Numbered from the stretch's first letter, positions 30,650 to 62,988 are shown. The stretch is DNA of 64,000 nt from an uncultured bacterium (GCA_965112635.1 OZ218778.1:1856001-1920000); one strand, 5' to 3'. Numbers and translations: made by a program. The notes: generated by a model not told the origin, from the sequence alone.

Positions 30650-30678
30650 TTGACAAGGAACAATGCATTGTTTAACAT
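30650..30678 (+). promoter_or_regulatory. Sigma70-type promoter with a 14-bp perfect palindrome in the spacer
   Basis: TTGACA-17 bp-TAACAT; AACAATGCATTGTT at 30659-30672. Confidence 0.65.
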
Positions 30679-30713
30679 TTGCTTCAAAACCAAACTTTAA
30701 AGGAGGGTTAAGC

Positions 30714-31259: not shown

Positions 31260-31280
31260 AAAATAGAACAGAAGTTTCTT

Positions 31281-31318
31281 AAAAAGGCCTTATTGCTTGT
31301 TGGGAATAAGGCCTTTTT
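31281..31318 (+). terminator. Bidirectional intrinsic terminator
   Basis: AAAAAGGCCTTATT-loop-AATAAGGCCTTTTT. Confidence 0.85.
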
Positions 31319-31367
31319 CTTTGGCATAATATTGACTTTATCATTTGGCAAGCTACAATTTGCTCTA

Positions 31368-39500: not shown

Positions 39501-39575
<75 letters not shown>

Positions 39576-39589: not shown

Positions 39590-41315
39590 TCACTGGTCGA
39601 CCATTTCCGTGACTTCGAGGACTTCCGACAAGGTGGTTACGCCGCTCAAAATCTTTTGGACACCGTCTTCGAACATCGTGACCATGCCGTTTTTGATGGA
39701 TTCCTCTTTGATCTTGGAAGCCGTCTCTTTTTCCACCACCAGTTTCCTGATACCTTCGTTCATCTCCAGCAATTCCGAAATGACGGTCCGGCCGCGGAAT
39801 CCAGTATTGAAGCAGTTGCGGCATCCCGGAGCATAAAAGATCTTGTGAGGGGTATGGCCAGTCACTAAAAAGGCTTTTTTGTCATCCTCGGTGGGGACCG
39901 TCTCTTTTTTGCAACGCAAACACAATGTCCTGACCAGACGTTGGCTGATGACCGCGCGCAGGGAGCTGGCGATCAGGTAAGGAGGAACTCCCATTTCCAC
40001 CAGTCGCACCACGGCCGATGGGGCGTCGTTGGTGTGAATGGTGGAGAAAACCAGGTGGCCGGTCAAAGAGGCCCGAATGGCGATCTCCGCGGTTTCCAGG
40101 TCCCTGATCTCGCCGACCAAAATGATATCCGGGTCCTGGCGAAGGATGGACCTCAAGGCGTAAGTGAAGTTGAGCCCGATTTCGCTGTGCATCTGTATCT
40201 GCGTAACGCCTTCGATCTCGTATTCCACGGGATCCTCCACGGTCGTGATGTTCTTAGTGCCCGTGTTGAGGGCCTGCAGGGCGCTATAGAGGGTCGTGGT
40301 CTTGCCGCTGCCCGTAGGGCCGCTCATCAGGATGATGCCATAGGTCTTGCGGATGATCCGCTTCAGGGCGTTCAACATATGAGGATTAAAACCGATATTA
40401 TCCAAACCCACGACCAAAACCCCTTTATCCAAGATACGCAGGACGACTTTTTCCCCGTTGATGGTCGGTGTGACGGCCACCCGGAAGTCTATTTCGCGGT
40501 TCTCCACTTTGATATGAAAACTGCCGTCCTGGGGCATGCGGCGTTCCATGATATCGAGCTTGGACATGACCTTGATCCTCGAGACAACGCTCGGCGCCAA
40601 GGCCAGCGGCAAGGTCTGCGCGGGCTGCAGGACCCCGTCCACTCGATAGAACACCTTTAAAAATGTTTTGGTCGGGATGATATGGATGTCGCTGGCCCGT
40701 CGTAAAAAGGCTTCCAAAAGGATCAGGTTAACCGACTTGACCACCGTGCTTTTTTCGTTCTCTTCCTGGACCGAGGCGGAAGGCACGGCGAGGTTGTCTA
40801 TCTCGATCCCCAGCCTTTTGGTCAGCGTCACGCCTTTGTCCACCGCCGTGTTCAACATATGCTGGACGATGCTGACCTTGTAATGGTCTTGATATTCCAT
40901 GAGTTTTTTCAGGATCTCACCGCGGGAGCCCATGGCCGCTTCAACCGGCCCCTGCAGGATGGCCTGGAGACGGTCCACCGTGTCCATATCCATGGGGTTT
41001 TCCATGGCTGACTATGGTGGTATTGTTCTTTTTCTCTATGGGGATCAACACCTTGCTGGAGGCCATATCCTGGGGGACCATGACCACGAGCTCCGGTTCC
41101 GGGGACAGGTTCTCCACGTCCAGGAAGGTGATCCCCATCGTGGATGCCCTTAATTTAAGCAGCTGCAACTCCTCCAGAAGTCCCAGATGGAGCAAAGCTT
41201 CACCAAAGGGAACTTTTTGTTCTTCCTCGTAATGGTGGACTTCCTCGAGTTGCTGGGAGGTCAGGATTTTCCTGTGGATTATCTCGTTTTGCAGGGCCAG
41301 GTCCGCGGGTTTCAA
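39590..41315 (-). pseudogene. GspE/PilB-family secretion ATPase with a frameshift near 41009 (pseudogene or assembly error)
   Basis: N-part 41315-41010 (MshEN-like/T2SSE_N, SD AAGGAG) and C-part 41005-39590 (GPTGSGKTT, RQDPD..GEIRD, GHLVFSTIHTN, CxxC). Removing one base gives I-V-A-M-E-N-P. Confidence 0.8.
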
Positions 41316-41390
41316 GAAACAATCTCCTTTTAATTAGAAGGGTGCTAAAAAAGTTCTCCACACTGGACTTTTTCAGATTTATTGAATTGT

Positions 41391-41472
41391 AAAGCATCGC
41401 CAATCCCTGCGGATTTGCGATGTAACAGGCTGCTAAATGACCCTCTATTAGGGTTTTTCAGCAGCCTGTTAG
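41391..41472. repeat. Structured dispersed repeat, copy 1 (two hairpins; IS-like inverted ends)
   Basis: CATCGC..GCGATG and TAACAGGCTGCT..AGCAGCCTGTTA; similar to 57941-58021. Confidence 0.75.
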
Positions 41473-42473
41473 AAATCAACGGTCAAAGAAAAGCGATGGG
41501 CCTCGCCTAAACTGGCATAAGGCACAAAGGCGTAATCAAAATGATAATACATCAAACCCAGTAAAAGGGAATAGCCAAAACCCGTCGTGAACATGAAAGG
41601 CAGGGAGGTCTGCTCGATCAAGCCGAGCCTGACTGCCAGGTCCTGCGCGCCCCAACGGGAGTTGTATTCCAATCCCAGATGGATCCCCAAATCCTGGCCA
41701 ATGAAATCATAGGAGGTTTCAGCGGAGGCCAGAATATTGCGGGGTTGTTTTGTTTCTTCCTGCTGGCCGCCGATGTTTTCCATGAGTTCTCCCAAGGCGA
41801 ACTTTTTAGCGATCCCTATCCTCAACAGCAAAGGCAGGGAATATCCGCCGAGCTCGGACCCGAGATTCTGCAGGGTCACGCCCAAGGAAGTTGCTTCGGC
41901 AAAAGGCCGGATGATGCCTCCCACATCAAAAGCGAAGCCGCTAAATCCCGCTCCCACAAAATCTTCGTGCAGCAGTTTAGCCGTGATGCCAGCGTGGAAG
42001 ATCTTGGAAAAGGTCGTGCCATAACTTAATTCGCCGAACAAGGCTGAGAAATTGAGGCTGTCCGCGCTGGGCACGAACATGCCCGGCAAAGGGAAGGACG
42101 GGTCCGTGGGCGTCATTTCATCGGCTTTGGAAACAGGGGAGGACCCCAGACGATTAACGCAAATGCTGAGGCCGCTATGGTTGGAAAGGGGCAGGGCATA
42201 GGCCGCGCTGTCAAAACTGGTGCCCAGAAACCAGTTGATATGGGTGAAAGAAAGTTCCTGGAAGGACAGGTCGCCGAGGCCGGCCGGATTCCAATAGGTG
42301 GACAAGGTGCCGCTGGCCACGGCGCAATAGGCGTCCCCCAGACTGGACGGCCGGGAACCGGTGGCTATCAAAAACTCTTCGCCAGCCACTGTGCCTGCCG
42401 CGAATGAATTCAGGGGATGCGTCAGAATAGAAAAAAGGATAAGGAATGCGATGGCTTGAGATTTTTGTGTCGT
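41469..42473 (-). CDS. PorV/PorQ-family outer-membrane beta-barrel (probable ACG start)
   Basis: GSRPSSLGDAY..YWNPAGL; DYAFVP..LGEAHRFSLTVDF; signal peptide is complete only if started at ACG 42473. Confidence 0.82.
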   Translation of the reverse strand, partial: TTQKSQAIAFLILFSILTHPLNSFAAGTVAGEEFLIATGSRPSSLGDAYCAVASGTLSTYWNPAGLGDLSFQELSFTHINWFLGTSFDSAAYALPLSNHSGLSICVNRLGSSPVSKADEMTPTDPSFPLPGMFVPSADSLNFSALFGELSYGTTFSKIFHAGITAKLLHEDFVGAGFSGFAFDVGGIIRPFAEATSLGVTLQNLGSELGGYSLPLLLRIGIAKKFALGELMENIGGQQEETKQPRNILASAETSYDFIGQDLGIHLGLEYNSRWGAQDLAVRLGLIEQTSLPFMFTTGFGYSLLLGLMYYHFDYAFVPYASLGEAHRFSLTVDF

Positions 42474-42586
42474 AGGGCTAACCTCCTAAAATATCGGGTC
42501 ACTATCGGCAGAGAACCCAGGTATGGCTAGAGAATAATATTATACTACTGGTAAGAGAAGACCTGACCCAGGTTCACCATCATTCT

Positions 42587-43588
42587 TTAGAAGCTCGCTC
42601 CCAGGGATATTCTTTGGGCATCACCCAGCTGGTCCATAGGCACAAAAGCGTAATCCAGGGCATATGCGCTGCTGCCGATTTCCAGGGCAAGCCCCACCCC
42701 GCAGCTCAGCAGCAGGTAGCTGCTGGTGGACTTGGCTATACCGCCGCGCAAGGCCAGGATGGTGCTGCCCATCTTAGGGGCCCATTCCAGGCCCAAATGA
42801 AACCCATAGTCCTGGCTGTTCACCAGGTCGGTCAGGTCCAGGCTGGCCAGAATATCTTTGGCCGCCGTCTTATTCTCCGGGGCTAGGGCCAGCAGCTCCT
42901 CAATATCCGTATAGCTCATCCTTTTGGCTATTCCGGCCCTGGCCATGAGGGGAAACGCAAACCCGTCCAATCCCGTGCTCATATTCTGCACAACCAGACC
43001 GGCTATATCCGTATCCGATAGTCTGACCTGCGCTCCCAGATCTCCTGCAAACCCGGTTGCGCTGTCGTCCAGCAGGTTTTCCTGGATACATTTGACATTG
43101 GCGCCGACATTGAGCATGGGCAGCAGGCCCCAGCCAAACCCTATTCCGCCCATGATAGACCCTACACTGACCGTCTGGTTTGCAGGAGAGTATTGGCCGG
43201 ACAAGGGGTTATCAGGGCTAGGCAATGTTTCATTGGTGACCGTGATGTCCGGGATACCCAGACGGCTTACAAACAGGCTTAACCCACTCTTTTTGCCTAT
43301 GTTGACGGCATAAGCCACAGTATCTAGGGAGATATTCTGCATCCACATCAGGTGGGTCAGGGAGATATCCTGGTATTGGAGTCTAGCCAGGCCAGCCGGG
43401 TTCCAAAAAGGGGCGAGAGCGCCGGTGACCACGGCTGTGTAGGCCTCAGCCATACCGCTGGGACGGGAACCGACCCCCAGCAACAGCTCATCGCCCGCGG
43501 TCTCTCCGGCCCCAAAGCAGTGGCTCACCAAACACAGGGAACACAGGCAGATAAGAGTGATTATCTTATCAATACGATAGTGCCGCGT
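42587..43588 (-). CDS. PorV/PorQ-family outer-membrane beta-barrel (probable ACG start)
   Basis: GSRPSGMAEAY..FWNPAGL; DYAFVP..LGDAQRISLGASF; signal peptide extends upstream of TTG 43531 to ACG 43588. Confidence 0.82.
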   Translation of the reverse strand, partial: TRHYRIDKIITLICLCSLCLVSHCFGAGETAGDELLLGVGSRPSGMAEAYTAVVTGALAPFWNPAGLARLQYQDISLTHLMWMQNISLDTVAYAVNIGKKSGLSLFVSRLGIPDITVTNETLPSPDNPLSGQYSPANQTVSVGSIMGGIGFGWGLLPMLNVGANVKCIQENLLDDSATGFAGDLGAQVRLSDTDIAGLVVQNMSTGLDGFAFPLMARAGIAKRMSYTDIEELLALAPENKTAAKDILASLDLTDLVNSQDYGFHLGLEWAPKMGSTILALRGGIAKSTSSYLLLSCGVGLALEIGSSAYALDYAFVPMDQLGDAQRISLGASF

Positions 43589-45792
43589 GATGTCTGGCCT
43601 CCTCCTGAGACTAGGTAAAAATACACGCCTGGAGCGACTGCCTGACCGTTGTCATTGGTACCGTCCCAGGCGGCGTAGGTGGTGCTGGTGGCTATGCTTT
43701 TGACCAGCAGGGCTGACATGGTCCGTATCTCAATGGTCGAGCCAGCCGGGATATTGGCGAATTTCAGCTCATGGTTCAGGGCTGTTTTGACCCTAAAAGG
43801 ATTGGGATAGACCACCAGGCTGCCGATGCTCACCAGAGCCTTGTTGCTGGTCAGGGGGGAGTAGGGGGTTATCTGGCTGAGGATATCGTTGTAACTCATG
43901 CTAAAAGTGTTTGAAATGAACACCCCGGTTGGGTCATTGCTGTTGACCTTGGCTACAAGATTTTTGCTGACCGTGCTGTTGGGATTGACGTTGGCGATGG
44001 TCCAGCTATACAGGCCCGGCCCAAGCACGCTATATCCGCTGTCAGCGGAAACAAAGGTCATGGTGTTGGGCAGGGTGTCCCAGATAAGGACATTTTGGGC
44101 GGGACCGCCCCTGTTCTGACAGGAAAGGGTCCAGGTCACCTGGTCACCCTGGTTTGCTTTGGGAACATTGGAGGATTTGGCCAGGGTAAAGCTGGCCGGA
44201 AGAGGAGTTGGAGTATTGGTTGGAGTATAGGTGGAGGTAAAGGTATATGTGTTGGTAAAGGTCGGGCCCGCCGTGGACTCACCGGAATATTTGGTCAGGA
44301 AGCCCTGATTATCTAGGCCTTTGACCGTGTAGTAGTAAAAGGTACTTGTACAGGCATTAGTGGCGGTGGAGTCGGTATAAGTAGTGCCACCCACTAAAGA
44401 ACCGTTGATCTGTGCATAGCCAGTTCCCTCGGTCGTACTACGGTAAACATTGTAGCCTGAGATGCCGAAGGTGGAGATGGGGGGAGCAGACCAGGTGAGA
44501 GATACAGTAGAAGGACAAGTAATGGTGGCAACCAGACCAGAGGGAGGAACCAAGGTGCCCATGGCATTATAGAAGTTGATGCGGCCGTAGCCCAGGTACT
44601 GATTCCAGCCATTAGCATCATAGGCATGATCGGCGGCATCGACCTTATCCGCGGTTTTGGTGATGCGGGTGGAGACTTCATCATAGGACACGCCGTTGGA
44701 CATTAGGACAGCGGCCAGGGCACAAACATAGGGACACGACATGGATGTGCCGCCCCAGTTTGCGTATGCGGAAGGTCCTCCGATTTCAGTGGTCAAATCG
44801 CCTCCCGGGGCAGCGCATATGACATAAGAGCTATAGGTGGAATAGGTTGCCCATTCATCATGGCTTCCCGAGGCGGCTATAGCGAAAGCTATGCCATCTG
44901 AGGCAGGATAAATGAGTTCATAGGTTCCGCTATCCCCTGACGCGGCCATTGCAATATGATGGTCGGTGGAATAGGCATTGCTTATGGCTGTATCAACGCC
45001 GGAAGCGCTCACAAAACCCCAGCTGCAATTAAAGACCTGCGCGCCGTGCTGGGAGGCCCAGTCGATTCCCGCGATAGCGTTGGCCGCTGTCGCGTCCGTC
45101 CAATTGGTCGTGATTTTTACAGGCATGATCAGGCAATTCCAAGCCATGCCCGCTATACCCGTACTATTATTAACTTCTGCTCCCAGTAGTCCTGAGATCT
45201 CAGTGCCATGACCATGGATATCCGTAGTATCAGAACTATTGGAGATCACATTCCAACCCGGGACAATTTTATCCATCAGGTCCACGTGACTGGAATTTAT
45301 TCCGGAATCAATCACAGCAACCACGGTGGAGGTTAACCCTTTGGCCCAGGGCATCATGGCGGGAGTGTTCCAAGCTTTGTCTGTTTGGGTGATAGGAATC
45401 GGCCACAAGACTCCGCTCTGGTAATAGGTATCGTTGGGAAGGGAGTAGGGGGTATAGGCCGGATGGGCGTAATAATTAGGATAGGCGTTTTTGATCTTAA
45501 TATGTTTTTTCGCCTTCCCAGCATAGTCCAGAACATTTTTACCATGGGGTATTTTTAGGTGATAGATATCCAATCTGCCCAGTTTTTTTATAACTTCACA
45601 GCCTAATTCTTTGGCAATGGCACGCGCTTCTGATTCGGGGACTTTTCCTTTTTCAAATTCAATTATTATCTCCCCTTCCACGTAATCAGGTTTTTCTCCG
45701 GCATAAAGGGGGTGTAATAAAAAGGGGATTATCAAGAAAACAGCCAAAAAAATATACGATATTATTATTCCCAATAGTATGTATTTTTTCAT
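43561..45792 (-). CDS. S8 subtilase (thermitase-like) with FN3, Thr linker, DUF11-like and T9SS-CTD-like domains
   Basis: Prodomain YVEGEIII; triad VIDSG, HGHGT, GTSMS; VYPNPF..WDGTNDNG..PGVYFY..GTIVLIR. Confidence 0.88.
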   Translation of the reverse strand: MKKYILLGIIISYIFLAVFLIIPFLLHPLYAGEKPDYVEGEIIIEFEKGKVPESEARAIAKELGCEVIKKLGRLDIYHLKIPHGKNVLDYAGKAKKHIKIKNAYPNYYAHPAYTPYSLPNDTYYQSGVLWPIPITQTDKAWNTPAMMPWAKGLTSTVVAVIDSGINSSHVDLMDKIVPGWNVISNSSDTTDIHGHGTEISGLLGAEVNNSTGIAGMAWNCLIMPVKITTNWTDATAANAIAGIDWASQHGAQVFNCSWGFVSASGVDTAISNAYSTDHHIAMAASGDSGTYELIYPASDGIAFAIAASGSHDEWATYSTYSSYVICAAPGGDLTTEIGGPSAYANWGGTSMSCPYVCALAAVLMSNGVSYDEVSTRITKTADKVDAADHAYDANGWNQYLGYGRINFYNAMGTLVPPSGLVATITCPSTVSLTWSAPPISTFGISGYNVYRSTTEGTGYAQINGSLVGGTTYTDSTATNACTSTFYYYTVKGLDNQGFLTKYSGESTAGPTFTNTYTFTSTYTPTNTPTPLPASFTLAKSSNVPKANQGDQVTWTLSCQNRGGPAQNVLIWDTLPNTMTFVSADSGYSVLGPGLYSWTIANVNPNSTVSKNLVAKVNSNDPTGVFISNTFSMSYNDILSQITPYSPLTSNKALVSIGSLVVYPNPFRVKTALNHELKFANIPAGSTIEIRTMSALLVKSIATSTTYAAWDGTNDNGQAVAPGVYFYLVSGGGQTSRGTIVLIR

Positions 45793-45893
45793 TGGCAATC
45801 CTTTGGAATAGGGAAATTAGAAGATTATCTACGTGTTTCTTCAATTATATGGCAAAAAACGGTTGTATTGGTCTTTGCAAATCCTGGGTATTT

Positions 45894-48800
45894 CTATTTA
45901 ATTATAGAAATTTTTAACGGTTTCTTTTGAGTTTGACCGCTGACCTGGGAATCGGCTTCTACAATTCCCACATAAAGACCGGCCGCAGTATTATTGACAT
46001 CCCAACCCAGGGTGGCAATGCCAGGCCCGGCTGCGGGCAAGCTGAGGGTGTTCACCAGCTCTCCCACCACATCATAAATTCTCACGGTCAGGCTGGATTG
46101 GTCCTGCAAAGCGACCTTGAACCATACCTTGTGGTCTGGGGTGGAGAGGTACGGGTTGGGGTAGACCGAAGCGTCCATAAACCCGCTTAAATTGGAGCTT
46201 AACACGGTCACACTTTGCACCAGCACATCGTGCTGGTGGTTGTAGGTCTGATCTATTTTGATCAAATACTCTCCGCTTTGCACATAATTGCCCAAGGCCG
46301 TGGTGCCGTCCCAGGTCAGGCGGGCTTGGTTCAAGGAGCCTAGCCCATCTGCCATTAACTGACCTGTGGAGGAAAAGATGTTTATCCCGATCGTGGTTGT
46401 CCCTGTGGGTTGATTGCTTATCTGCAGTAAATTACTGGTCAACTTCATGCTTCCCAATTGTCCCTGGACGAAATAGCTCTGGTAAAGCTGTTTGACCAAC
46501 TCTCCGCTGGTGGTGTAGATACTGACGGTCAAAAGGTCTCCTGACTTGAGCACGGTCAGGGGCATGACGACCGTATTGCCTTGCAGGCCGGGGATATCGG
46601 CTTTAAGCACATATTGCCCGCTGTCCACAAGGTAGCCCAGGTCGCTTTTGCCGTCCCAGGGGACATGGTAGATGATGCCAGCGCTTTTGATCTCGATATC
46701 AAAGAGGCCGGAGTTGGGGTCAAAGATGGTAGAGCCGCTGCCTGAGGAAAGCTGGATACCGCTAAACCCACCCAAGACAAGGACATTACTGAAGGTTTTG
46801 ACCACTTCACCGGCTTCGTCGTAGACCTTGAGCTCCAGGTTGGTCATCACCGGGGTATTGGTAGCGGTCACGGTGGCGGTATGGGTCTGGGTTTGGGTTT
46901 TGGACGGAGTCCAGGTCAGGGAAGAAGTCAAGGTCACTGAAGAGGTCACGGTAACAGTGGAGGTCAGAGTGATGGTGGCTGTATTTGTCATTGTTGAAGT
47001 AGGCAGAGGTGTATAGGTGGTAGTGGTCGTGGCTGACTCAGTGAAAGTGTTGGTATTGGTTGAGGTGGGTAAGGGGGTAGGTGTAGTTGTAGGCGTCCCT
47101 GTTTCAGTGGCTGTGTAAGTAAAGGTGAAGGAGTATAAAGTCGTAACCGTGGCCGTAGGGGTCGCTGTATTGGTAGAGGTGCTAGTTAAAGTTATCGTAG
47201 CTGTAACCGTGATGGTCGCTGTTGATGTTGGTGTATTGGTAGCAGTACTAGTTGGCGAAATGGTATGGGTTGGTGTAGCCGTACCCGTGTTTGTGCTGGT
47301 GTAGGTAGAGGTGGCGGTGCTGGTGTTGGTATTGCTGACGCAGGGAGTCACGTTTTCCACGTACACATCGCCGCAGTAGGGCCTTCCCAGCTCCTCGCCA
47401 AGGCCGGCTCCCATGACCAGGGAATTGGTGCCATTGCCGGTCAGGTCGCCTATAAGCACGTTGCCTCCTCCTACTTCTTCCCCGCCGGTGCCAAGGGAAA
47501 CTCCGTAATAACGCATGGTATAGAACGCAGGGTTTGCTATATCCCTTATTTGGCCTTTGCCGGCGGTCCATGGTCCGGTGGTCACCCACACCACGCCATT
47601 TTCCCAAATGTTATTTGGTTTATTAGATAAGGCGCCGCTTCCGGCGTCGCCAGCTCCTATGGCCAGACTCGGCACCGGAGTACAGCTAAAACAAAGTTGG
47701 CCGATGGCCATATTGTCCCCAAAATCAGTAGCATAAGCTCCAAATGCGCCATCGCCGTCTAAGCGGATGTTGAAATTGTTTACAAGATTCAAGTCTACAT
47801 CATTGCCATTACCTAAAGGGAAGTTAGTGGGGTTGTCATTGGAATAGACAATATAGACTGAGCCATTTCCATTCCTTCCTTGGCTGTTTTCTCCCGCCGC
47901 ACCCATGGCCAAATCCAGATTGCCATTTAAAAATCCCAGGGCTATCCCATCGCCAAGGTCTCCTGGTGCCGCGGTATAGGGCATTTCCTCTGAGGCATTG
48001 GCGCTTTGGGCCCCATCAAAACGCACGTTACAGTTATTAATATTATTCATGTCCACCATGACCCCCGGTCCGCCACCTATGGGTCCGTAGATCACATAGA
48101 CTGCACCATTGTTTACCTTGCCGTTCGTGGAGGTGCCGGGTGCGCTCATGATGAGATCAGGATGGCCGTCTGTATTACCTCCAGCGCCCCCTCCCACGTC
48201 AGCTATGGCTACCTGCTGGCCCATGCCAACCTCAGCCGCAGCGCCGACGTAGAGGTGGTCATAGTTATTGACATTATTCAGATCCAGGATTGCGGCTGGA
48301 CCCGCGGGCAGAGGGCCGTCTATCGTGAACACTGACCCGGAAATGAATCTGCCGGCAAAATTGTTATAGAAAATATCTCCGATGGCCAGGTCATTGATGT
48401 TGTCGCCGTTGATGTCCCCTATGGCGAATGAGGCGGCTCCGGCGTAATTATTGACGATCTCCACGTTATAGTTGTTAGGATTGGCGAAGCTCACCACTGC
48501 CCCAGGGCCGCCCGCAAACGGTCCGTATTTTACCCATACCGCCCAGCCGCCCCCCATAACCAGGTCGTTCACATTGTCATTGTTCAGATCGCCGATGGCT
48601 AAGGCAAACCCGAGGTTGGCCCCCCCGCCGGGGCCGTCGTAACGGATATCAAAATTATTGAATATATTGAGGTCGGGCTGGTTGGCCATGGTGAGAGGGA
48701 AATTGACCAGCCCGCCATAGATGATATAGACCGAGCCGCTGCCACCGCCGTTGTAGCTGGCATTGCCATCCCCTATGACCAGGTCAGGGATGCCGTCTCC

Positions 48801-49550
48801 GTTGAGGTCGCCAATGGCCATGCCTCCCTGTGTCCCTTCCTCACCAAAGCTCAAAGTCCAATCGGCTTGCGCACCGACGAACTGCTCGTTGTAGTTGGCT
48901 GGAACAGCCAGATCAACATCCGGATCAATGACCGCCTCACCCTTGGAGCCTACAGAGACCTTTAATTGCAGGTCGATGATGCCGTCCCCTTTTTGCTCGT
49001 AGGCCAGCAACCGGTGGTCCATTTTGGCCACATCAGACCAGCTGAAGTACCCAACGGCTTGTTTATAGCCTCCCCGCACAGGGAACGTCAGAGAGGCTCC
49101 CTTCATGACAGGCATGACATAGCGGCTTAGACCGGGATAGTCCTTGGCCGGCCGTTCCAATTCTTCGTGGGCGCGAAAGTCCAGGGCCTCTTTTTTCTCC
49201 GGCAGGGCGTACTCTTTGCCCTCATAAACAACGCGGTCCGTGTCGATCTGATAGTAGAGGTGGAGCGTGGTTGTCTTGTCTTTTTGAGTGGGATTTTTGA
49301 CCCGGATAGTTTGTTTTAACGACCGTTTTTGGGTCGCCGGCGATGCTTTGCCCAGGTCGTAGGTCACTTTGACCCTAAGCGCAGGATCATCACAGACAGC
49401 ACGGAAATCTTTAAATCCCTGTTTCAGGTCCTCTCGTAAACCGTTACTTTCGAACCCTGCCCCGGAAACTAGTTGGCTCATGCCGCCTACTAGGAGGAGG
49501 GTGCCTATGGTCAGGACTATCGTGAAAAAAGTTGTCGACGATTTATGCAA
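45894..49550 (-). CDS. FG-GAP (integrin-alpha-like propeller) surface protein with Thr-rich stalk and triple FlgD-Ig/CTD-like C-terminus
   Basis: Repeated GDLNGDGIPDLVIG-like motifs with G.VY; T-x stalk; WDG..SG.Y modules; VYPNPY..GLYVG..KISIIK. Confidence 0.85.
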   Translation of the reverse strand: MHKSSTTFFTIVLTIGTLLLVGGMSQLVSGAGFESNGLREDLKQGFKDFRAVCDDPALRVKVTYDLGKASPATQKRSLKQTIRVKNPTQKDKTTTLHLYYQIDTDRVVYEGKEYALPEKKEALDFRAHEELERPAKDYPGLSRYVMPVMKGASLTFPVRGGYKQAVGYFSWSDVAKMDHRLLAYEQKGDGIIDLQLKVSVGSKGEAVIDPDVDLAVPANYNEQFVGAQADWTLSFGEEGTQGGMAIGDLNGDGIPDLVIGDGNASYNGGGSGSVYIIYGGLVNFPLTMANQPDLNIFNNFDIRYDGPGGGANLGFALAIGDLNNDNVNDLVMGGGWAVWVKYGPFAGGPGAVVSFANPNNYNVEIVNNYAGAASFAIGDINGDNINDLAIGDIFYNNFAGRFISGSVFTIDGPLPAGPAAILDLNNVNNYDHLYVGAAAEVGMGQQVAIADVGGGAGGNTDGHPDLIMSAPGTSTNGKVNNGAVYVIYGPIGGGPGVMVDMNNINNCNVRFDGAQSANASEEMPYTAAPGDLGDGIALGFLNGNLDLAMGAAGENSQGRNGNGSVYIVYSNDNPTNFPLGNGNDVDLNLVNNFNIRLDGDGAFGAYATDFGDNMAIGQLCFSCTPVPSLAIGAGDAGSGALSNKPNNIWENGVVWVTTGPWTAGKGQIRDIANPAFYTMRYYGVSLGTGGEEVGGGNVLIGDLTGNGTNSLVMGAGLGEELGRPYCGDVYVENVTPCVSNTNTSTATSTYTSTNTGTATPTHTISPTSTATNTPTSTATITVTATITLTSTSTNTATPTATVTTLYSFTFTYTATETGTPTTTPTPLPTSTNTNTFTESATTTTTYTPLPTSTMTNTATITLTSTVTVTSSVTLTSSLTWTPSKTQTQTHTATVTATNTPVMTNLELKVYDEAGEVVKTFSNVLVLGGFSGIQLSSGSGSTIFDPNSGLFDIEIKSAGIIYHVPWDGKSDLGYLVDSGQYVLKADIPGLQGNTVVMPLTVLKSGDLLTVSIYTTSGELVKQLYQSYFVQGQLGSMKLTSNLLQISNQPTGTTTIGINIFSSTGQLMADGLGSLNQARLTWDGTTALGNYVQSGEYLIKIDQTYNHQHDVLVQSVTVLSSNLSGFMDASVYPNPYLSTPDHKVWFKVALQDQSSLTVRIYDVVGELVNTLSLPAAGPGIATLGWDVNNTAAGLYVGIVEADSQVSGQTQKKPLKISIIK

Positions 49551-49615
49551 CAGTATTTCCCGTGAAACTTTTTTGAAGTTACAAGATCAATGGCCGGCCA
49601 AAAAATGTTTCATGC

Positions 49616-52600
49616 TTATCTTATAATGATCACTTTGGTTATTGTTCTGTAGTTCGCAGCAGGGGTGTCCGCCTCCACGGCTGCCAGATACAAACCAGCG
49701 GACATCTTCCCCACATTCCAAGGGATGGCCAGCGTCCCGGACCCCGCAGCGGTGAGGGTCATGATCAAGTTGCCTGCCACATTGTAAATATTGATCCTGA
49801 TGCTGGCTGCCTGATTGATATCCACCTTGAAATAAATGGTCTGCGACCCCATCTCCCGATAGGGATTGGGATACGCTTTGGCGTCAAACCCGGGGTTGGA
49901 GGAGGAGACCAGCACCGTGATGCTCTTGGAATAGGTCACGATCCTGCCATTGTAAACCTGGTCGGCCTTGAGGATGTATTCGCCGTTCTGCACCAGGTTC
50001 CCCAAGCTGTTAGTGCCGTCCCAAAGGATGCGGCCGGGGGCCAGAGTCCCGTTGCTGTCGGAGAGATAAAGGCCGTTATCCCCCAACGCGCCCACTCCAA
50101 CCGTCGTGTTCTGTCCGGGGCCGGTCAGCAATAAGTTATTGGTCAAGGATATGCCTTCCAGCTGGCCCGAAGTGCTATATCCCTGGTAGATCTCCTTCAC
50201 CAGCTCTCCGGAAGTCGTGTAAATGTCCACTTTTAGATGGTTGCCCAAGCTGGTCACTATCACGCTGTTCGTAAAGGTAGTGGCTTTGCCGAACTGCGTC
50301 ACTTGGGATTTCAGGATATAGTCTCCGGGCTGCACCATGGCTCCCAGATCGTTGGTCCCGTCCCAGGGGATTTGCCATTGGCCTTTTTTGGTGGTCAGGA
50401 GGATCTCCAGCGGCACTCCGGAATCCTCCATCAGGGAGCCCGACCCGCCCAGCGTAATGGTGAGGTCGCTCAAATCGCCGAAGATCGGAACCCATCCAAG
50501 GGTCTTGACCACCTCGCCGTTGGTCGCGTAGATCACCAGGTCCACATTGAGCACAGGCGGCGTTATCGTTGGCGTGCAGGAGCTGGTCAGGGTCTTGCTC
50601 GGGGTGACCGTATTGGTCCAGGTCAAAGTCTGGGTGGGCGAAAAGGGAGGAGTGGAGGTGTTGCTGGGCGTAGAAGTGCAGCTGGGCGTGGCAGTATTGC
50701 TGGCGGTCCCGGTATTGGTGAAGGTATAGGAAAAGGTCTTGGTCAAAGTGACGGTATTGGTCAAAGAAGAGGTAATGGTCAAAGAGGGGGTCTGGGTGCT
50801 GGAAGGGGTGTTGGTGATTGAGTAAGTGGGTGTGTAGGTGGTCGTGAGAGTGATGGTCTGGGTATTGCTTTGCGTTATCGTGGCCGAGCCTGTAGGGCTG
50901 GCGGTCAAGGTTGCTGTGACGGTGGACGTGTTGATGAAGGTGAAAGTCGCCGAAGCTGAGGGGCTGACGGTCAAGGTTGCCGTGGGGGTGGGAGTGTTGG
51001 TGGAGGTGTAAGTCGCCGAAGCTGAGGGACTGACGGTCAAAGTTGCTGTGGTCGTAAATGTATTGGTGGCCGTATAGGTTCCGGAGGCGGTAGGGCTGGC
51101 GGTAACCGTGTAGGTATTGGTGGACGTGAAGAGGTTCGTGTAGGTTGCCGTGAGGGATGGGCTGGAGGTCAGGGTAGCTGAACTGGTGGCTGTGTTAGTG
51201 GCCGTGTTGGTGCTGGTGGCAGACGGGCTGACGGTCATCGTGGTCGTGCTGGTGCCTGTAATGGTGGCCGTGCTGGTGTCGGTGGCAGAGGGGCTGACGG
51301 TCATCGTGGCCGTGCTGGTGGCCGTGTTGGTGGCCGTGCGGGTACTGGTGGCAGAGGGGCTGACGGTCATCGTGGCCGTGGCGGTGGCTGTAATGGTGGC
51401 CGTGCTGGTGCTGGTGGCAGAGGGGCTGACGGTCATCGTGGCCGTGGCGGTGGCCGAGTTGGTAGAGGTGCGTGTGCTGGAGGCTGTCGGGCTGACCGTG
51501 GCTGTTGCGCTGGACGTGGAAGTTGAAGTGATGGTGTTGGTAATGGTGGAAGTGCAGGTGCTGCTGCCGGTCGGACTAGCCGTGGCGGTGGTCGTAATCG
51601 TGGGTGTGCATGTTGAAGTGCTGGTAGATGTGGCCGTATCGGTCGCGGTTGAGGTGCTGGTGTTTGTCGGGGCGCAATAAAGAGCCACTTGCGCGTCATT
51701 GGATGTAGTAGCCACTAAACCCGTGCCCTGGAGAGTACCGGTATTGTCGAGAAGGCCGGGACAGGCGGTCGTGGTCACCATAGCGGCAAAACCAAAAGGC
51801 GGAACAGAGGGCAGGTAGTATTTCACCACCACTTCGCAACTATCCACCGCCGAAGCGTCGGCTGGGCCGCTGACCGTGTTGTAGTAGCTGACGCGCAGGT
51901 TGTTCAGGTCAGCCCAGGTCCAGTTCGTATCCGCGGTGGCATCATAATAGCCGTCATCGGTGTTTCCATCAAAAGTTTCGCGCATAATATCAGCGGGAGC
52001 TCCGAGAAAGCCGTTGTTGGTCCCATCCATGGAATAGTTGAAATACAAGGGGTTGACTAATCCGTCGCCACCGTTAACGCCCTGTATTGTGCTGTGGAAC
52101 ATAACTCCGGCGATCACATATTGGTTCTGGTTCACCACGCCGGAGGGGCCGATTTGGAACCATCCCGTGTTGCCTGGAGTGAGGGTCGCAAAATTGCCGT
52201 CAGGGGCCCCTATGGTATTACCGGGGTTGGTCCATCCTGGAGCGTTAATGACAGAGGAAATATACTGGTCAGCGTAGTTGAAGGTCACCGAACCTGAGAG
52301 CGTGAATGTCCAGGAGACCAGGTTGGTCACGGGGTTATAGGTTCCCCCGCCTGTCGCTGAAACAAAGGCCATGCCCGCCGGCACGGTGTCATAGACCGTG
52401 ACCGTGCTGGCATCTTCGTCAAAGGAACCCATGGTGAAGGTGTAATTGACCGTACCGCCGGTAGCGGAAACGGTCACATCAGAGGCTTTGCTCAGGTCAA
52501 TGTCAGAGCCTGGAAAGAAGAAATACTCCCTGTATAAATTCATATCACCGCAGTTATTATTAATAAGCCCCCATGCGCTTGGTCCGTTCCCCAGGTAGGG

Positions 52601-53179
52601 CACATAACTATAGGGAACATTAGGCGGAGCAGGCATTATATAATACATCCACTGTCCTATGCCTGGCGTATCGTCAATAGGTGTGCCCCAGGTTGAATCA
52701 TCAAAACCCGGCATCATCCAATTGGCAGGCGGAACCGCCAGCTGACCGGCGCAGCCGCCGGGTGGATTTGTGCAACCACAACCTCCGGGAACATACAAAA
52801 ATTTTACGTTGGCGTCAGGATTGCTATAAATGACCACTGTGGGGGCGTCTGAATAATGGACAGTCAAGCGAAAAGTCACGGTCTGCGGACCGGAAGTATT
52901 GGGCGGATTGTCAACAGCAATGAGGTTTGTTTGGTTGGGAAGGAAGTCGTGCAAGTCAAGAGTACCGTCCGCGGTGGAATAACTAGTGATTTGGTCAAAG
53001 TTCCAACCAGTTGTCCCGCCATGAATTCCGTTAATGTAAAAATCTGCGTGGTCGTCTCCGGCTATTTCCAGGTCAGCTGAAACAATGTAGGCAATTGTTT
53101 GGCGGGGAACAAACAGTGATAGCAAACATAGAAAAATAATTTTCTTAAAAAATCTTTCTAGTACCTTTTGTTTAAGCAT
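49616..53179 (-). CDS. Surface protein: jelly-roll/lectin-like domain, DUF11-like, 22-aa Thr repeats, triple FlgD-Ig/CTD-like C-terminus
   Basis: Signal; GDDHADFYING, W...FDDSTW; VYDTVPAGMAFVSATGGG; AYPNPY..AGLYLA..KVIIIR. Confidence 0.82.
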   Translation of the reverse strand: MLKQKVLERFFKKIIFLCLLSLFVPRQTIAYIVSADLEIAGDDHADFYINGIHGGTTGWNFDQITSYSTADGTLDLHDFLPNQTNLIAVDNPPNTSGPQTVTFRLTVHYSDAPTVVIYSNPDANVKFLYVPGGCGCTNPPGGCAGQLAVPPANWMMPGFDDSTWGTPIDDTPGIGQWMYYIMPAPPNVPYSYVPYLGNGPSAWGLINNNCGDMNLYREYFFFPGSDIDLSKASDVTVSATGGTVNYTFTMGSFDEDASTVTVYDTVPAGMAFVSATGGGTYNPVTNLVSWTFTLSGSVTFNYADQYISSVINAPGWTNPGNTIGAPDGNFATLTPGNTGWFQIGPSGVVNQNQYVIAGVMFHSTIQGVNGGDGLVNPLYFNYSMDGTNNGFLGAPADIMRETFDGNTDDGYYDATADTNWTWADLNNLRVSYYNTVSGPADASAVDSCEVVVKYYLPSVPPFGFAAMVTTTACPGLLDNTGTLQGTGLVATTSNDAQVALYCAPTNTSTSTATDTATSTSTSTCTPTITTTATASPTGSSTCTSTITNTITSTSTSSATATVSPTASSTRTSTNSATATATMTVSPSATSTSTATITATATATMTVSPSATSTRTATNTATSTATMTVSPSATDTSTATITGTSTTTMTVSPSATSTNTATNTATSSATLTSSPSLTATYTNLFTSTNTYTVTASPTASGTYTATNTFTTTATLTVSPSASATYTSTNTPTPTATLTVSPSASATFTFINTSTVTATLTASPTGSATITQSNTQTITLTTTYTPTYSITNTPSSTQTPSLTITSSLTNTVTLTKTFSYTFTNTGTASNTATPSCTSTPSNTSTPPFSPTQTLTWTNTVTPSKTLTSSCTPTITPPVLNVDLVIYATNGEVVKTLGWVPIFGDLSDLTITLGGSGSLMEDSGVPLEILLTTKKGQWQIPWDGTNDLGAMVQPGDYILKSQVTQFGKATTFTNSVIVTSLGNHLKVDIYTTSGELVKEIYQGYSTSGQLEGISLTNNLLLTGPGQNTTVGVGALGDNGLYLSDSNGTLAPGRILWDGTNSLGNLVQNGEYILKADQVYNGRIVTYSKSITVLVSSSNPGFDAKAYPNPYREMGSQTIYFKVDINQAASIRINIYNVAGNLIMTLTAAGSGTLAIPWNVGKMSAGLYLAAVEADTPAANYRTITKVIIIR
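50895..51494 (-). repeat. Intragenic 66-bp (22-aa) tandem repeat, nine periods
   Basis: The Ser-Pro codons (GGGCT/GGGA on the + strand) recur every 66 bp from 50895 to 51489. Confidence 0.9.
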
Positions 53180-53239: not shown

Positions 53240-53268
53240 ATTATAGACATTAAATGTTCCTGTCACAA
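53240..53268 (-). promoter_or_regulatory. Sigma70-type promoter for the minus-strand surface-protein cluster
   Basis: Minus strand TTGTGA-17 bp-TATAAT; ACATT-A-AATGT palindrome in the spacer. Confidence 0.5.
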
Positions 53269-54677: not shown

Positions 54678-55664
54678 TTGCTGCATTATATCGTCAAGCG
54701 ATTGCTGTTGAGCATCCCCATTTTGATCGGGATAACCATCATTACTTTCGTGGTCATGCATCTGGCGCCAGGCAGCCCGGTCTCCGTGCAGATCCAGATG
54801 AATGCCAAGGTTTCCGCAGACACTCAGGAGCGGCTCAAGGCGCTCTACGGATTGGATAAACCTCTGGTTGTCCAGTACGGGTTATGGATCAAAAGGCTGG
54901 CCACCGGCGATTTGGGCGAGTCGTTCATAGATATGAGGTCGGTCACCGATAAAATATTAGAAAGACTGCCGGCCACCCTGGAGCTGGAATTGCTCTCTTT
55001 ATTACTGATCTTTCTTGTGGCCGTGCCCTTGGGCGTATTTTCGGCCAGCCACCCTAAGTCTCTCTACGACAAGATTTTTACCCTCGGGTCTTTTGCCGGT
55101 TTTTCTATCCCAACATTTTGGCTGGCCCTGCTGCTCATGCTTTTCTTCGGGGTTTACCTCAACTGGCTGCCAATATCCGGGATGAGGTCGCTCAACGCGG
55201 AATATATGCCTTTTTTACCCAGGCTGACCGACCATCTACAGCACCTGGTCCTGCCTTTATTTGTCTCAGTTTTTGGGGGATTTGCCGCCATCTCCCGTTT
55301 TACCCGCTCCAGCATGCTGGAGGTTCTGCGCCAAGATTATATCCGCACGGCCCGGGCCAAAGGTTTGCCGGAATCCCAGGTCCTTTATAAACACGCTTTA
55401 AGGAACGCGCTCCTGCCGATCATCACCATCGTAGGCTTGTCCATCCCGGGATTAATAAGCGGAGGGTTCATCTTTGAAACCATCTTTGCCTGGCCCGGCA
55501 TGGGCAGATTGGCCTATGACGCCACCATGAGCTATGACTACCCGGTGGTCATGGGGACGGCGACCGTCGCTGCCCTCTTAACCCTTCTGGGAAATTTGCT
55601 GGCCGATGTTCTTTATGCGCTGGCTGATCCCCGCATCAGATACGGAGGGCCGACGAACCCATGA
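54678..55664 (+). CDS. Peptide/nickel ABC transporter permease (OppB/DppB)
   Basis: YIVKRLL, GLDKPL, DYIRTARAKG, HALRNAL, DPRI. Confidence 0.93.
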   Translation: MLHYIVKRLLLSIPILIGITIITFVVMHLAPGSPVSVQIQMNAKVSADTQERLKALYGLDKPLVVQYGLWIKRLATGDLGESFIDMRSVTDKILERLPATLELELLSLLLIFLVAVPLGVFSASHPKSLYDKIFTLGSFAGFSIPTFWLALLLMLFFGVYLNWLPISGMRSLNAEYMPFLPRLTDHLQHLVLPLFVSVFGGFAAISRFTRSSMLEVLRQDYIRTARAKGLPESQVLYKHALRNALLPIITIVGLSIPGLISGGFIFETIFAWPGMGRLAYDATMSYDYPVVMGTATVAALLTLLGNLLADVLYALADPRIRYGGPTNP

Positions 55665-56494
55665 AACGCTCCTGGATGCTGTCTTTAAAAAAACATCATC
55701 TGGCCATGGCTGGACTGGTCCTGATCGTGTGCCTTTACCTGCTGGCCTTGTTGGCCCCTTTATTATCGTCCTACAATCCGGCTGACCAGGATTTGAACCA
55801 CAGGCTGGAGCCGCCCTCCTGGGCGCATCTATGCGGGACCGATGACTTGGGACGGGATGTTTTCAGCAGGATGGTGTGGGGAGCGAGGGTTTCTCTGACC
55901 GTGGGGCTATTGGCCATAGCCATCTCCACGCTCGTGGGGCTGACTGTGGGGACATGCGCGGCTGCGTTCGGAGGATGGGTAGACCAGGTGCTGATGCGGT
56001 TCGTGGATGTGGTCATTTGTTTTCCCACTTTGTTCCTGATCCTCATCCTGATCGTGTTCCTGGGCCCCTCCCTGACCACGGTCATGATCGTCATAGGACT
56101 GACCAGCTGGACGGACATGGCCAGGCTTGTCCGGGCGGAAATTTTGAGCCTCAAGCAGCGGGATTTTGTCATGGCCAGCCGGTCGCTGGGCGCTTCCATG
56201 CCCAGGCTGATGTTCAGGCATTTGCTGCCCAACGCTCTGGCGCCGGTGTTCGTTTCCGTGACTTTCGGGGTAGCCGGGGCCATCCTCATGGAGTCAGGGC
56301 TGAGCTTTCTCGGTCTGGGTGTGCAGCCGCCCACCGCGAGCTGGGGCAATATCCTGACCACGGGCAAAGATTATCTGCAGACTGCCTGGTGGCTGACGGT
56401 TTTCCCTGGACTGGCCATTTATATCACGGTACTTTCATTTAATTTGTTGGGTGACGGTCTTAGGGATATTATTGACCCGAGACTGAAACAATAG
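55661..56494 (+). CDS. Peptide/nickel ABC transporter permease (OppC/DppC)
   Basis: HLCGTDDLGRD, RHLLPN, LSFLGLG, GDGLRD. Confidence 0.93.
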   Translation: MKRSWMLSLKKHHLAMAGLVLIVCLYLLALLAPLLSSYNPADQDLNHRLEPPSWAHLCGTDDLGRDVFSRMVWGARVSLTVGLLAIAISTLVGLTVGTCAAAFGGWVDQVLMRFVDVVICFPTLFLILILIVFLGPSLTTVMIVIGLTSWTDMARLVRAEILSLKQRDFVMASRSLGASMPRLMFRHLLPNALAPVFVSVTFGVAGAILMESGLSFLGLGVQPPTASWGNILTTGKDYLQTAWWLTVFPGLAIYITVLSFNLLGDGLRDIIDPRLKQ

Positions 56495-56502
56495 GAGAGG
56501 GC

Positions 56503-56952
56503 GTGAAGCTGAAAAAGATAAAAGAAACCTGGCGTGAATTCTCGGAAAAGATCAGGACTTTGGAAGAAAAGCCGGAAAAGATAGCCCGGGCCGCGGCTAT
56601 CGGCGCTTTGCTGGGGAGCTCTCCCACCTTCGGTTTCGCGGTCCTTCTTGTCTATCCTGTGGCCAAGTTTTTTAAGCTCAATGTCTGGGTCGCTTACACG
56701 GTCAAGTTCATGGTTTCCAACCCATGGACCACGCCTTTTATCTGGGTGGGTCAATTCTGGCTGGGATTTTGGGCGCTGGGACTGCCTTTTCCCAGTCAAT
56801 TGCCCCATGTCAGTCTTCATGAGCTCAGCTTTGTGTTCTGGGTCTATGTTTTGGGTGCCACTATTTTTGGGGTCCTTGCCGGCCTGACGATATACTGTTC
56901 TGTTTATGTCCTCCTAAAGCTGCAGTCTGCCAAAAAAGGACGGGCCTCTTGA
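56503..56952 (+). CDS. DUF2062-like membrane protein
   Basis: PEKIARAAAIG, SNPWTTPF, hydrophobic helices. Confidence 0.7.
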   Translation: MKLKKIKETWREFSEKIRTLEEKPEKIARAAAIGALLGSSPTFGFAVLLVYPVAKFFKLNVWVAYTVKFMVSNPWTTPFIWVGQFWLGFWALGLPFPSQLPHVSLHELSFVFWVYVLGATIFGVLAGLTIYCSVYVLLKLQSAKKGRAS

Positions 56953-57941: not shown

Positions 57942-58021
57942 AAGCCTCGCAACTCCCTGTGGATTTGCGAGGTAGCAGGCTGCTAAAGGACTGCTATTAG
58001 AATTTCTAATCAGCCTGCTAA
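57941..58021. repeat. Structured dispersed repeat, copy 2
   Basis: CCTCGC..GCGAGG and TAGCAGGCTG..CAGCCTGCTA; compensatory changes relative to copy 1. Confidence 0.75.
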
Positions 58022-58030
58022 GGGAGGGGT

Positions 58031-58990: not shown

Positions 58991-59019
58991 GCTAATTATT
59001 TTAGGAAAGGGGAAGCCTT

Positions 59020-60030: not shown

Positions 60031-60043
60031 CGACAAGGTGAGC

Positions 60044-61171: not shown

Positions 61172-61227
61172 GTAAGCAAGCCTAACGGATTCTGTTATAC
61201 TGGTCCAAATTTTTGCTGGAGGATGTT

Positions 61228-62955: not shown

Positions 62956-62988
62956 AAACCAAACCAAAGTGAATGAGGAGCAGGGGCC

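Follow-up and report, generated by a model that had tools for sequence, protein, structure and literature searches.

A candidate surface-display gene row of C-terminal-domain proteins and PorV/PorQ-family barrels in a bacterium apparently outside Bacteroidota

Results

Three CTD proteins and two barrels are encoded in one gene row

The subject of this study is a row of five genes in a 64,000-nucleotide stretch of DNA from an uncultured bacterium (GCA_965112635.1 OZ218778.1:1856001-1920000). This stretch, referred to below as the window, represents 64 kb of a 2,876,006-bp contig, or ~2% of the genome. The five genes are co-oriented on the minus strand at 41469-53179 in the order A-B-C-V1-V2. 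The first three encode large proteins that end in a C-terminal domain (CTD) of the kind found on type IX secretion system (T9SS) cargo, and the last two encode barrels of the PorV/PorQ family. The gaps between A and B and between B and C are 65 and 95 nucleotides (nt), respectively. The genes and their parts are listed here.

49616-53179, minus strand: A, 1187 amino acids (aa), with a signal-peptide-like N-terminus, a head (residues 1-487), a stalk, two internal FlgD_ig-like domains and a CTD
45894-49550, minus strand: B, 1218 aa, with a signal-peptide-like N-terminus, an FG-GAP head (residues 1-725), a stalk, two internal FlgD_ig-like domains and a CTD
43561-45798, minus strand: C, 745 aa, with a signal-peptide-like N-terminus, a prodomain, an S8 protease domain, fn3, a Thr-rich stretch (residues 496-546), DUF11 and a CTD
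42587-43591 (ATC start) or 42587-43531 (first TTG), minus strand: V1, a PorV/PorQ-family barrel
41469-42473 (ACG start), 41469-42452 (ATC) or 41469-42389 (first GTG), minus strand: V2, a PorV/PorQ-family barrel
49619..49873, minus strand: CTD of A, residues 1103-1187, with YPNPY..., GLYL and TKVIIIR; match to our own CTD hidden Markov model (HMM) at 3.1e-15
45897..46166, minus strand: CTD of B, residues 1129-1218, with YPNPY..., GLYV and LKISIIK; own CTD HMM 9e-15
43564..43812, minus strand: CTD of C, residues 663-745, with YPNPF..., GVYF and GTIVLIR; own CTD HMM 7e-19
50534..51718, minus strand: Thr-rich stalk of A, residues 488-882
50895-51549: tandem repeats in the stalk of A, 66 bp (22-aa units) and 132 bp, 79-88% matches

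An original prediction, made from the sequence of the window, had described three consecutive large secreted proteins, each with a Thr-rich segment and an end domain of the form YPNP...G[LV]Y...[KT]xxII/LI[KR], followed directly on the same strand by two tandem PorV-like barrels. All of these motifs were found again in A, B and C, and both barrels reach the cut-off of the family model NF033709. Since about 5 of the 46 open reading frames (ORFs) in the window bear such a CTD, the naive chance of finding three in a row beside the barrels is ~0.0013.

The tails of A, B and C are related to type A CTDs

The CTDs of A, B and C extend to the last residue of proteins that begin with signal-peptide-like N-termini. 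A (36.6) and B (56.7) pass the cut-off of the FlgD_ig model PF13860, and C (18.6) misses it. With Por_Secre_tail PF18962 (cut-off 27), A scored 25.4 and B 25.0, and C gave no match at E<=0.01; with TIGR04183 (cut-off 23) the scores of A, B and C were 21.8, 22.5 and 17.9. In NCBIfam, the CTD of C scores highest with the CTD parts of the PorZ model (32.4 bits) and the PorU model (23 bits). The type B CTD model TIGR04131 has no match in A, B or C.

A profile was built from 69 tails, headed by C and mostly drawn from other genomes, and was searched against the PDB. The matches comprised PorU (6za2_A, residues 1061-1154, E 8.9e-10), PorZ (5m11_A, residues 675-758, E 9.3e-9), FlgD domains (E ~1e-8), two F. 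johnsoniae substrate CTDs in translocon structures (8glj_D, E 8.8e-6, and 8glk_D, E 2.5e-5) and a gingipain CTD (5hfs, E 0.0033). At the profile level, the A, B and C tails are probably homologous to T9SS type A CTDs, with FlgD domains scoring as well. Near the end of the CTD there is a Lys in A and B and an Arg in C; a conserved Lys near the end of type A CTDs contacts PorV (PMC10994853).

The internal FlgD_ig-like domains of A and B keep the core fold signature and have neither the YPNP strand nor the terminal K..II[KR] strand. These two strands are confined to the last domain of each protein.

V1 and V2 are divergent members of the PorV/PorQ family

Both barrels reach the cut-off of 90 for the PorV/PorQ family model NF033709, V1 with 93.1 bits (E 2.3e-26) and V2 with 102 (E 4.6e-29). 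None of the equivalog models was reached: V1 and V2 scored 16.0 and 16.3 bits against 250 for PorV (NF033710), 32.2 and 39.4 bits against 220 for PorQ (NF033711), and 56.7 and 42.4 bits against 325 for PorV2 (NF052325). As judged from these scores, V1 and V2 are members of the PorV/PorQ family and not orthologues of PorV, PorQ or PorV2. When a profile built from V2, V1 and 25 homologues was compared with the PDB, PorV (6h3i_F) was matched at E 1.2e-36, and TodX and FadL came next at ~1e-3. Neither barrel matches BamG at E<=0.01, Pfam finds no PorP/SprF in them at E<=0.01, and V1 gives a weak match to UPF0164 (20.7 vs 21.4). V1 and V2 are 35% identical to each other and both terminate in Phe. 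The closest database relatives of V2 are ~30% identical, and the 4 of 60 matches that carry a name are all Elusimicrobia entries called 'PorV/PorQ family protein'.

The signal-peptide-like stretch of each barrel sits upstream of the first ATG, GTG or TTG (43532-43591 for V1 and 42390-42473 for V2), which therefore suggests that the genes start at ATC (or ACG), or that there are sequence errors. With the starts of table 11, V1 probably begins at ATC 43591, which is 6 nt downstream of AGGAGGAGG and yields a protein of 334 aa with a signal-peptide-like N-terminus; from the first TTG at 43531 it would have 314 aa and no signal peptide. For V2 the candidate starts are ATC 42452 (327 aa) or possibly ACG 42473, 8 nt after AGGAGG, and the first GTG at 42389 gives 306 aa. 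Read from its ATC start, V1 shares its first 31 nt with the end of C, and the two genes are possibly co-translated or translationally coupled.

CTD genes adjoin PorV-like barrel genes in many phyla

Loci for comparison were obtained by a degenerate-pattern scan, based on a 9-row alignment, of one genome per species. The best 80 of 411 confirmed PorV-like matches were used; these loci were chosen on barrel similarity alone, are 23-32% identical to V2, come from many phyla, and are all from genomes other than that of the window. CTDs were marked with an HMM that was built from five window tails and iterated on the loci. This HMM marks 104 ORFs, in 102 of which the domain is C-terminal.

Counted by gene distance from the nearest barrel, CTD-bearing genes amount to 62/140 at distance 1, 10/121 at distance 2, 6/105 at distance 3, 6/95 at distance 4 and 2/408 at distance 5 or more. 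For immediate neighbours versus farther genes (62/140 vs 24/729) this corresponds to an odds ratio of 23, with a p-value that is inflated by related genomes. In 50 cases the next gene upstream of a barrel gene, on the same strand, encodes a CTD protein, and an adjoining CTD gene is present in 52 of the 70 loci with a called barrel ORF, which represent at least 15 named phyla. Such loci were found in Poribacteria (9/10), Ignavibacteriota (8/8), Bacteroidota (4/4), Cloacimonadota (3/3), Elusimicrobiota (2/3), Firestonebacteria (1/1) and Desantisbacteria (1/2), as against 0/5 in Spirochaetota and 0/1 in Goldbacteria. Literature searches turned up no account of CTD and PorV-family genes being paired outside the FCB (Fibrobacterota, Chlorobiota and Bacteroidota) group; public annotation already names such Elusimicrobiota barrels 'PorV/PorQ family protein'.

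Barrel clades follow their partner families

Clustering of the regions ahead of the CTD divided the CTD proteins into family X (n=40), BNR propellers (n=8), small groups and singletons, the last including A, B and C. Only one of the 50 upstream CTD proteins matches the PorU model, and 42 have no NCBIfam match at 1e-8; PorU was therefore rejected as the usual upstream partner in relatives. The one exception, locus L050 from a metagenome-assembled genome of Ignavibacteriota, is the sole case of a canonical PorU beside PorV, and its gene is split into overlapping ORFs (5675-8413 and 8373-9758). No relationship was detectable between family X and the N-terminal ORF of this split gene, which should hold the protease domain (hhalign probability 0.3%).

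Family X is an unannotated family whose proteins measure ~700-1500 aa (around 1000 aa) and have an fn3-like middle and a divergent CTD; four members were added by HMM. They contain no Pfam domain, and Pfam sees no CTD in them at E<=1e-3; their tail is recognised by our own CTD HMM and by weak PDB matches to PorU (E 0.006) and PorZ (E 0.012). The family numbers 3,952 representative clusters at E<=1e-30 and is found in Ignavibacteriota, Poribacteria, Cloacimonadota, KSB1, Eisenbacteria, WOR-3, Bacteroidota and others. In loci L008, L011, L015-L018, L020-L026, L028, L033, L041 and L043-L045 a family X gene immediately precedes the PorV-like match, which lies at about position 10000, and the further loci with such genes are L047-L049, L051-L055, L057, L059, L062-L064, L067, L073, L075, L077, L079 and L080. 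The family X HMM finds no member in the window.

In four loci (L005:60-3213, L038:7107-10852, L058:3837-7359 and L078:7222-10825) a BNR-propeller CTD protein is followed by two tandem PorV-family barrels. These loci share the CTD-barrel-barrel layout of the window, but their two barrels are old paralogues that fall in separate clades.

A tree was made of 80 barrel domains, two BamG-like rows being excluded. In this tree the 38 barrels that follow a family X gene fall into a single clade (Shimodaira-Hasegawa-like approximate likelihood ratio test, SH-aLRT, 99; 0/500 label shuffles as clustered), the four BNR-linked barrels are grouped (SH-aLRT 74), and the PorU-linked PorV belongs to a separate clade. 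For 24 of the 80 rows the partner is labelled 'none', and these include a clade of four Spirochaetota barrels. Among the barrel ORFs of the loci, 74/80 reach NF033709, one reaches the PorV equivalog and none reaches PorQ or PorV2; two ORFs in the loci match BamG NF053685. V1 and V2 are sisters (SH-aLRT 98) on a long branch, and on this placement they are a lineage-specific duplicate pair.

That barrel clades track partner families is what a joint function of barrel and CTD protein would predict, and this tracking, together with the enrichment of CTD genes among immediate neighbours, indicates that cargo-barrel linkage is conserved. The original prediction had proposed cargo-linked PorV paralogues. 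The linkage itself holds; the partner in relatives is mostly family X rather than anything present in the window, and V1 and V2 lie outside the canonical PorV clade and apart from that of family X. By its position in the tree, the window pair would be a new, lineage-specific branch with a subtilase partner.

We also compared two CTD HMMs, one built from tails directly upstream of barrels (n=50) and the other from other tails (n=47). Upstream-type versus other-type scores were 49.5 vs 56.4 for C, 31.5 vs 43.7 for B and 30.9 vs 47.1 for A.

Some PorV-family barrels in the loci are extended at the C-terminus. The extension is an OmpA-like peptidoglycan-binding domain in L014:3743-5701 and L039:9426-10880, matches PA1041-type anchor, TraB and MtsC models in L019:9785-11377, and is a YbgF/BamD-like tetratricopeptide (TPR) extension in L030:9908-11380. 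Such extended barrels occur in Goldbacteria, Desantisbacteria, Elusimicrobia and Gemmatimonadetes.

The cargo proteins carry unrelated heads on Thr-rich stalks

By eye and in a hydropathy window, A, B and C each show a signal-peptide-like hydrophobic stretch at the N-terminus. Thr-rich (TxTxT) stretches span residues 488-882 in A, 726-914 in B and 496-546 in C, so that the stalks measure ~395, ~190 and ~50 residues. A stalk on the C-terminal side of the head would be expected of a protein that is anchored by its C-terminus. A and B have a C-terminal stalk-Ig-Ig-CTD module in common, with 38% identity over 483 aa, and their heads are unrelated. The plus strand is G-rich over the stalk repeats of A, which explains a GC-skew peak at 50-52 kb.

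For A, Pfam reports DUF11 (a repeat at residues 226-291) and FlgD_ig (36.6 bits, cut-off 27). A lectin-like head had been proposed for this protein, and this could not be confirmed: in the first 489 residues Pfam yields DUF11 alone, and a search of the PDB gave 0 matches at E<=0.1. In B, FG-GAP (58.7 bits) and FlgD_ig (56.7 bits) were identified. C contains a prodomain of the fervidolysin type, Peptidase_S8 (114.6 bits), fn3, DUF11 and, weakly matched, FlgD_ig (18.6). Its protease domain (residues 158-405) is thermitase-like and matches AK.1 protease (1dbi_A) at E 9.5e-43, with VAVIDSG, HGHGT and GTSMSCP aligned to identical residues. We take these motifs to hold the Asp, His and Ser, respectively, of the subtilase catalytic triad, and because they match identical residues of AK.1 protease, C looks like an active subtilase.

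The host is probably outside the FCB group and no T9SS core gene was found in the window

The closest homologues of PurA are 55-61% identical, and those named among the 120 listed belong to Nitrospirota, Thermodesulfovibrionales, Omnitrophota, NPL-UPA2 and Edwardsbacteria. For PGDH the closest homologues are 51-56% identical, and where the 120 listed carry a name it is mostly that of Omnitrophota, besides two Firestonebacteria and one Nitrospirae. No match among the 120 listed for either protein is named as Bacteroidota. Because these homologues are distant and none of them is so named, the host is, as far as the two markers tell, a deep-branching and poorly sampled lineage. That it does not belong to Bacteroidota, as the original prediction had suggested, is supported by both markers, and a position outside the FCB group is likely on the same grounds. 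Of 38 crude gene starts, 18 have a Shine-Dalgarno-like motif ahead of them, compared with 15% of random sites; use of this motif is atypical for Bacteroidota, and the evidence is weak.

NCBIfam (34 ORFs) and Pfam (43 ORFs) scans of the window, in which nine ORFs at 54678-63708 were scanned with Pfam alone, gave no full-length match to SprA, PorK/L/M/N, PorU or PorZ. The two scans thus agree with the earlier statement that no SprA, PorK/L/M/N or PorU is recognisable in these 64 kb. Nor was a T9SS core gene found among 60 barrel neighbours at 14 loci whose genomes are non-FCB or unassigned. Core genes of the system are not usually linked to porV, so that their absence from the flanks of a barrel gene says little.

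A frameshifted PilB-like gene and other features of the window

Beyond V2 on the same strand lies a PilB/GspE-type ATPase gene, which had been described as part of the cluster.

39590-41005, minus strand: ATPase ORF matching T2SSE, GspE and PilB (PilB positions 98-563)
40941-41333, minus strand: second ATPase ORF in another frame (PilB positions 3-101, E 1.1e-8)
53240..53268, minus strand: promoter-like site upstream of A, TTGTGA-17-TATAAT, 10/12, a consensus match only

Since the two ORFs cover PilB positions 3-101 and 98-563, they appear to be a single PilB-like gene that is split by a frameshift near 41000-41011; this could be a true break or an assembly error. No other pilus or type II secretion system (T2SS) genes adjoin it, and the 1084 ORFs in the window and the 80 related loci, taken together, include no homologue of this ATPase gene other than itself. 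The family assignment and the strand were therefore borne out, and membership of the ATPase in the module was rejected, as the gene is frameshifted and has no counterpart at the 80 loci. On its other side a tRNA gene is encoded on the opposite strand (39501-39572), which is the single Rfam match.

Scans for promoters and terminators did no better than on shuffled sequence (16 sites vs 12.9 expected and 17 vs 15.7, respectively). The region 41469-53179 has no megablast match in a plasmid collection that would point to a mobile origin.

On the plus strand there are two further CTD proteins with no barrel gene adjoining. One (22315-24981) has 888 aa, DUF11 and a stalk at residues 591-807, and the other (27665-28885) has 406 aa and an N-terminal Thr-rich stretch at residues 33-99. 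At 30663-32735 (plus strand) a 198-aa ORF without a family match, which ends in ...HYYF, precedes a 480-aa ORF with an internal FlgD_ig/CHU_C-like domain (residues 353-405) and a hydrophobic C-terminal tail. Outer-membrane barrels often end in this manner, and the pair may represent another type of surface anchoring. Finally, 32982-34952 (plus strand), ~6.5 kb from the cluster, encodes a 656-aa protein with an O-antigen-ligase-type (Wzy_C) membrane domain and TPR repeats.

Discussion

The gene row described here combines CTD proteins and PorV/PorQ-family barrels in one arrangement, and the same adjacency is found in genomes of many other phyla. Our tentative reading, to which we would give slightly less than an even chance, is that A-B-C-V1-V2 is a surface-display module in which V1 and V2 serve as cognate carrier or anchor barrels for the CTDs. 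A, B and C would be exported to the periplasm by Sec, and their passage across the outer membrane would require a translocon that is encoded elsewhere. At the outer face of the outer membrane, V1 and/or V2 would bind the CTDs and hold or carry A, B and C there. The heads, which are of unassigned fold for A, an FG-GAP propeller for B and an apparently active subtilase for C, would be carried on the Thr-rich stalks, with the beta-sandwich CTD at the end. We infer CTD-barrel binding, retention of the CTDs and co-translation of C and V1 from the domain content and the gene order. The PilB-like ATPase gene would be unrelated to the module.

Several elements of this scheme have precedents. PorV binds type A CTDs by its loops inside SprA and then carries them off (PMC10994853). 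PorU and PorZ keep their CTDs, which stay attached to PorV and PorQ, and the authors speculate that cognate PorV-like barrels may shield a CTD from cleavage (PMC10202324). Genes for type B cargo adjoin those for cognate PorP/SprF shuttles (PMC12618676). The original prediction had paired type B CTD cargo with 'PorF-like' paralogues; in the accounts cited here the type B partners are PorP/SprF-like, and this element was set aside.

Compared with the PorV proteins of F. johnsoniae (6h3i chain F) and P. gingivalis (PorV/LptO), V1 and V2 belong to the same family and share an N-terminal ...WNPAGL... motif and a C-terminal Phe. They are not orthologues of these proteins (16 bits vs 250), they were duplicated within their lineage outside the canonical clade, and their genes lie beside cargo rather than beside porU. 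The resemblance to the P. gingivalis attachment complex, with its PorU-PorV and PorZ-PorQ pairs, resides in the predicted holding of a CTD protein on a PorV-family barrel, in the content of the row (a propeller-CTD protein, a protease-CTD protein and two barrels, mirroring PorZ, PorU, PorV and PorQ) and in the CTD profile, which matches the PorU and PorZ CTDs best in the PDB. However, C is an S8 serine protease and not a C25 cysteine protease, B has no PorZ model match, and A and B bear the long stalks that are typical of adhesin-like cargo.

The type B systems of F. johnsoniae also have a cargo gene beside the gene for its own carrier or anchor barrel (PMC12618676), whereas the tails in the window are type A/FlgD_ig-like, leave TIGR04131 unmatched and go with barrels of the PorV/PorQ family. 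With family X, too, the CTD protein is encoded next to its PorV-family barrel, upstream and on the same strand (37/70 loci), but the family and its barrel clade form one conserved orthologous pair (a clade of 38), whereas A, B and C are singletons and the window has no family X member. FadL, TodX and the spirochaetal UPF0164 barrels are distant sequence relatives of V1 and V2 that have no CTD partner, the profile match to FadL and TodX being weak (E ~1e-3).

A number of observations weigh against cognate carriage by V1 and V2. The barrels are very divergent: alone, V1 has no PDB match at E<=10 and V2 matches PorV at E 2.3, and their family scores barely exceed the cut-off, where 74/80 relatives score 90-300. 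Neither barrel gene has a canonical start codon ahead of its signal peptide. All three CTDs miss the curated cut-offs of PF18962 and TIGR04183, narrowly. CTD proteins are apparently abundant in the genome, to judge from 5 of ~46 window ORFs, and this makes it more likely that cargo and barrel adjoin by chance. A special 'partner-type' CTD in C is unsupported, as no window tail scores higher with the upstream-type HMM. The window has no member of family X, which is the partner in 37 of the 52 linked loci. Lastly, the weakly supported neighbour of V1 and V2 in the tree is a long-branched Spirochaetia barrel without an adjoining CTD gene, and none of the five Spirochaetota loci has a CTD partner.

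Among the alternatives, an ordinary T9SS survives best, and we regard it as unlikely yet still a serious contender. A full set of SprA, PorK/L/M/N, PorU and PorZ would be encoded elsewhere in the genome, V1 and V2 would be the general equivalents of PorV and PorQ that serve all CTD proteins, and some cargo genes would share their operon by chance. CTD proteins are indeed common and scattered in the window, two of them (22315-24981 and 27665-28885) far from the barrels, and an attachment complex requires exactly two barrels. One PurA match is named Edwardsbacteria, a group placed within FCB. The T9SS is reported to occur in several FCB-group phyla beyond Bacteroidota (PMC11285876). Against this, V1 and V2 score 16 bits where the PorV cut-off is 250 and 32-39 where that of PorQ is 220, and the two stem from a recent duplication and are not a pair of old paralogues. 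Furthermore, no PorU lies beside them, unlike in the single canonical pair (L050), and most of the closest named marker homologues are not from the FCB group.

Two further alternatives appear improbable, both to about the same degree. In the first, the barrels would be unrelated to the CTD proteins: V1 and V2 would be FadL-like uptake channels or BamG-like, and their place after CTD genes would be coincidental. The family does have members without a CTD partner (the 4-member Spirochaetota clade and the 24/80 tree rows labelled 'none'), the weak UPF0164 match of V1 and the next PDB relatives FadL and TodX point the same way, and two ORFs in the loci match BamG NF053685. PorV-like barrels reportedly also act as BamG in one published study. 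This coincidence is opposed by the strength of the adjacency enrichment (odds ratio 23, with related genomes inflating the p-value), by the overlap of C and V1, and by the lack of a BamG match in V1 and V2 at E<=0.01.

In the second, the system would be reduced and self-sufficient, as the original prediction had it, dispensing with an SprA-type translocon and relying on PorV-family barrels and another export route. It would be in line with the lack of T9SS core genes in the 64 kb and among the 60 barrel neighbours of the 14 non-FCB or unassigned loci, and with the CTD-barrel pairs in Poribacteria (9/10), Elusimicrobiota (2/3), Desantisbacteria and Firestonebacteria, whereas T9SS genes are absent outside the FCB group according to a 2024 paper. 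However, this absence from the window covers ~2% of the genome, and T9SS core genes normally do not lie beside porV. A FadL-type barrel of ~300 residues, the 14-strand fold presumed for V1 and V2, is also too small to pass proteins of 120 kDa. The neighbouring ATPase is a PilB broken by a frameshift, no other pilus or T2SS genes adjoin it, and none of the 80 loci has such a neighbour.

Least probable, and in our view a long shot, is that the row is a non-orthologous counterpart of the attachment complex, with B standing in for PorZ, C for the PorU sortase and V1/V2 for PorV/PorQ. It would process the many CTD proteins of the genome and anchor them with no Bacteroidota-type SprA/PorKLMN machine; if true, CTD and PorV-family anchoring would be older and more widespread than the T9SS itself.

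The published accounts consulted confine the T9SS to Bacteroidota or the FCB group. In the window, type A-like CTD proteins are genetically paired with PorV-family barrels in a lineage whose named markers are nearest to Omnitrophota, Nitrospirota and Firestonebacteria, and the pairing of tail and barrel recurs across many phyla. It may therefore be a wider route of surface display than is now described. If V1 and V2 are cognate CTD carriers, the principle of 'one shuttle per neighbouring cargo', known for type B, would extend to type A-like CTDs, and the shuttle-cargo rule would reach well beyond Bacteroidota. The CTD of C and V1 would then offer a concrete pair for the question of CTD-barrel specificity.

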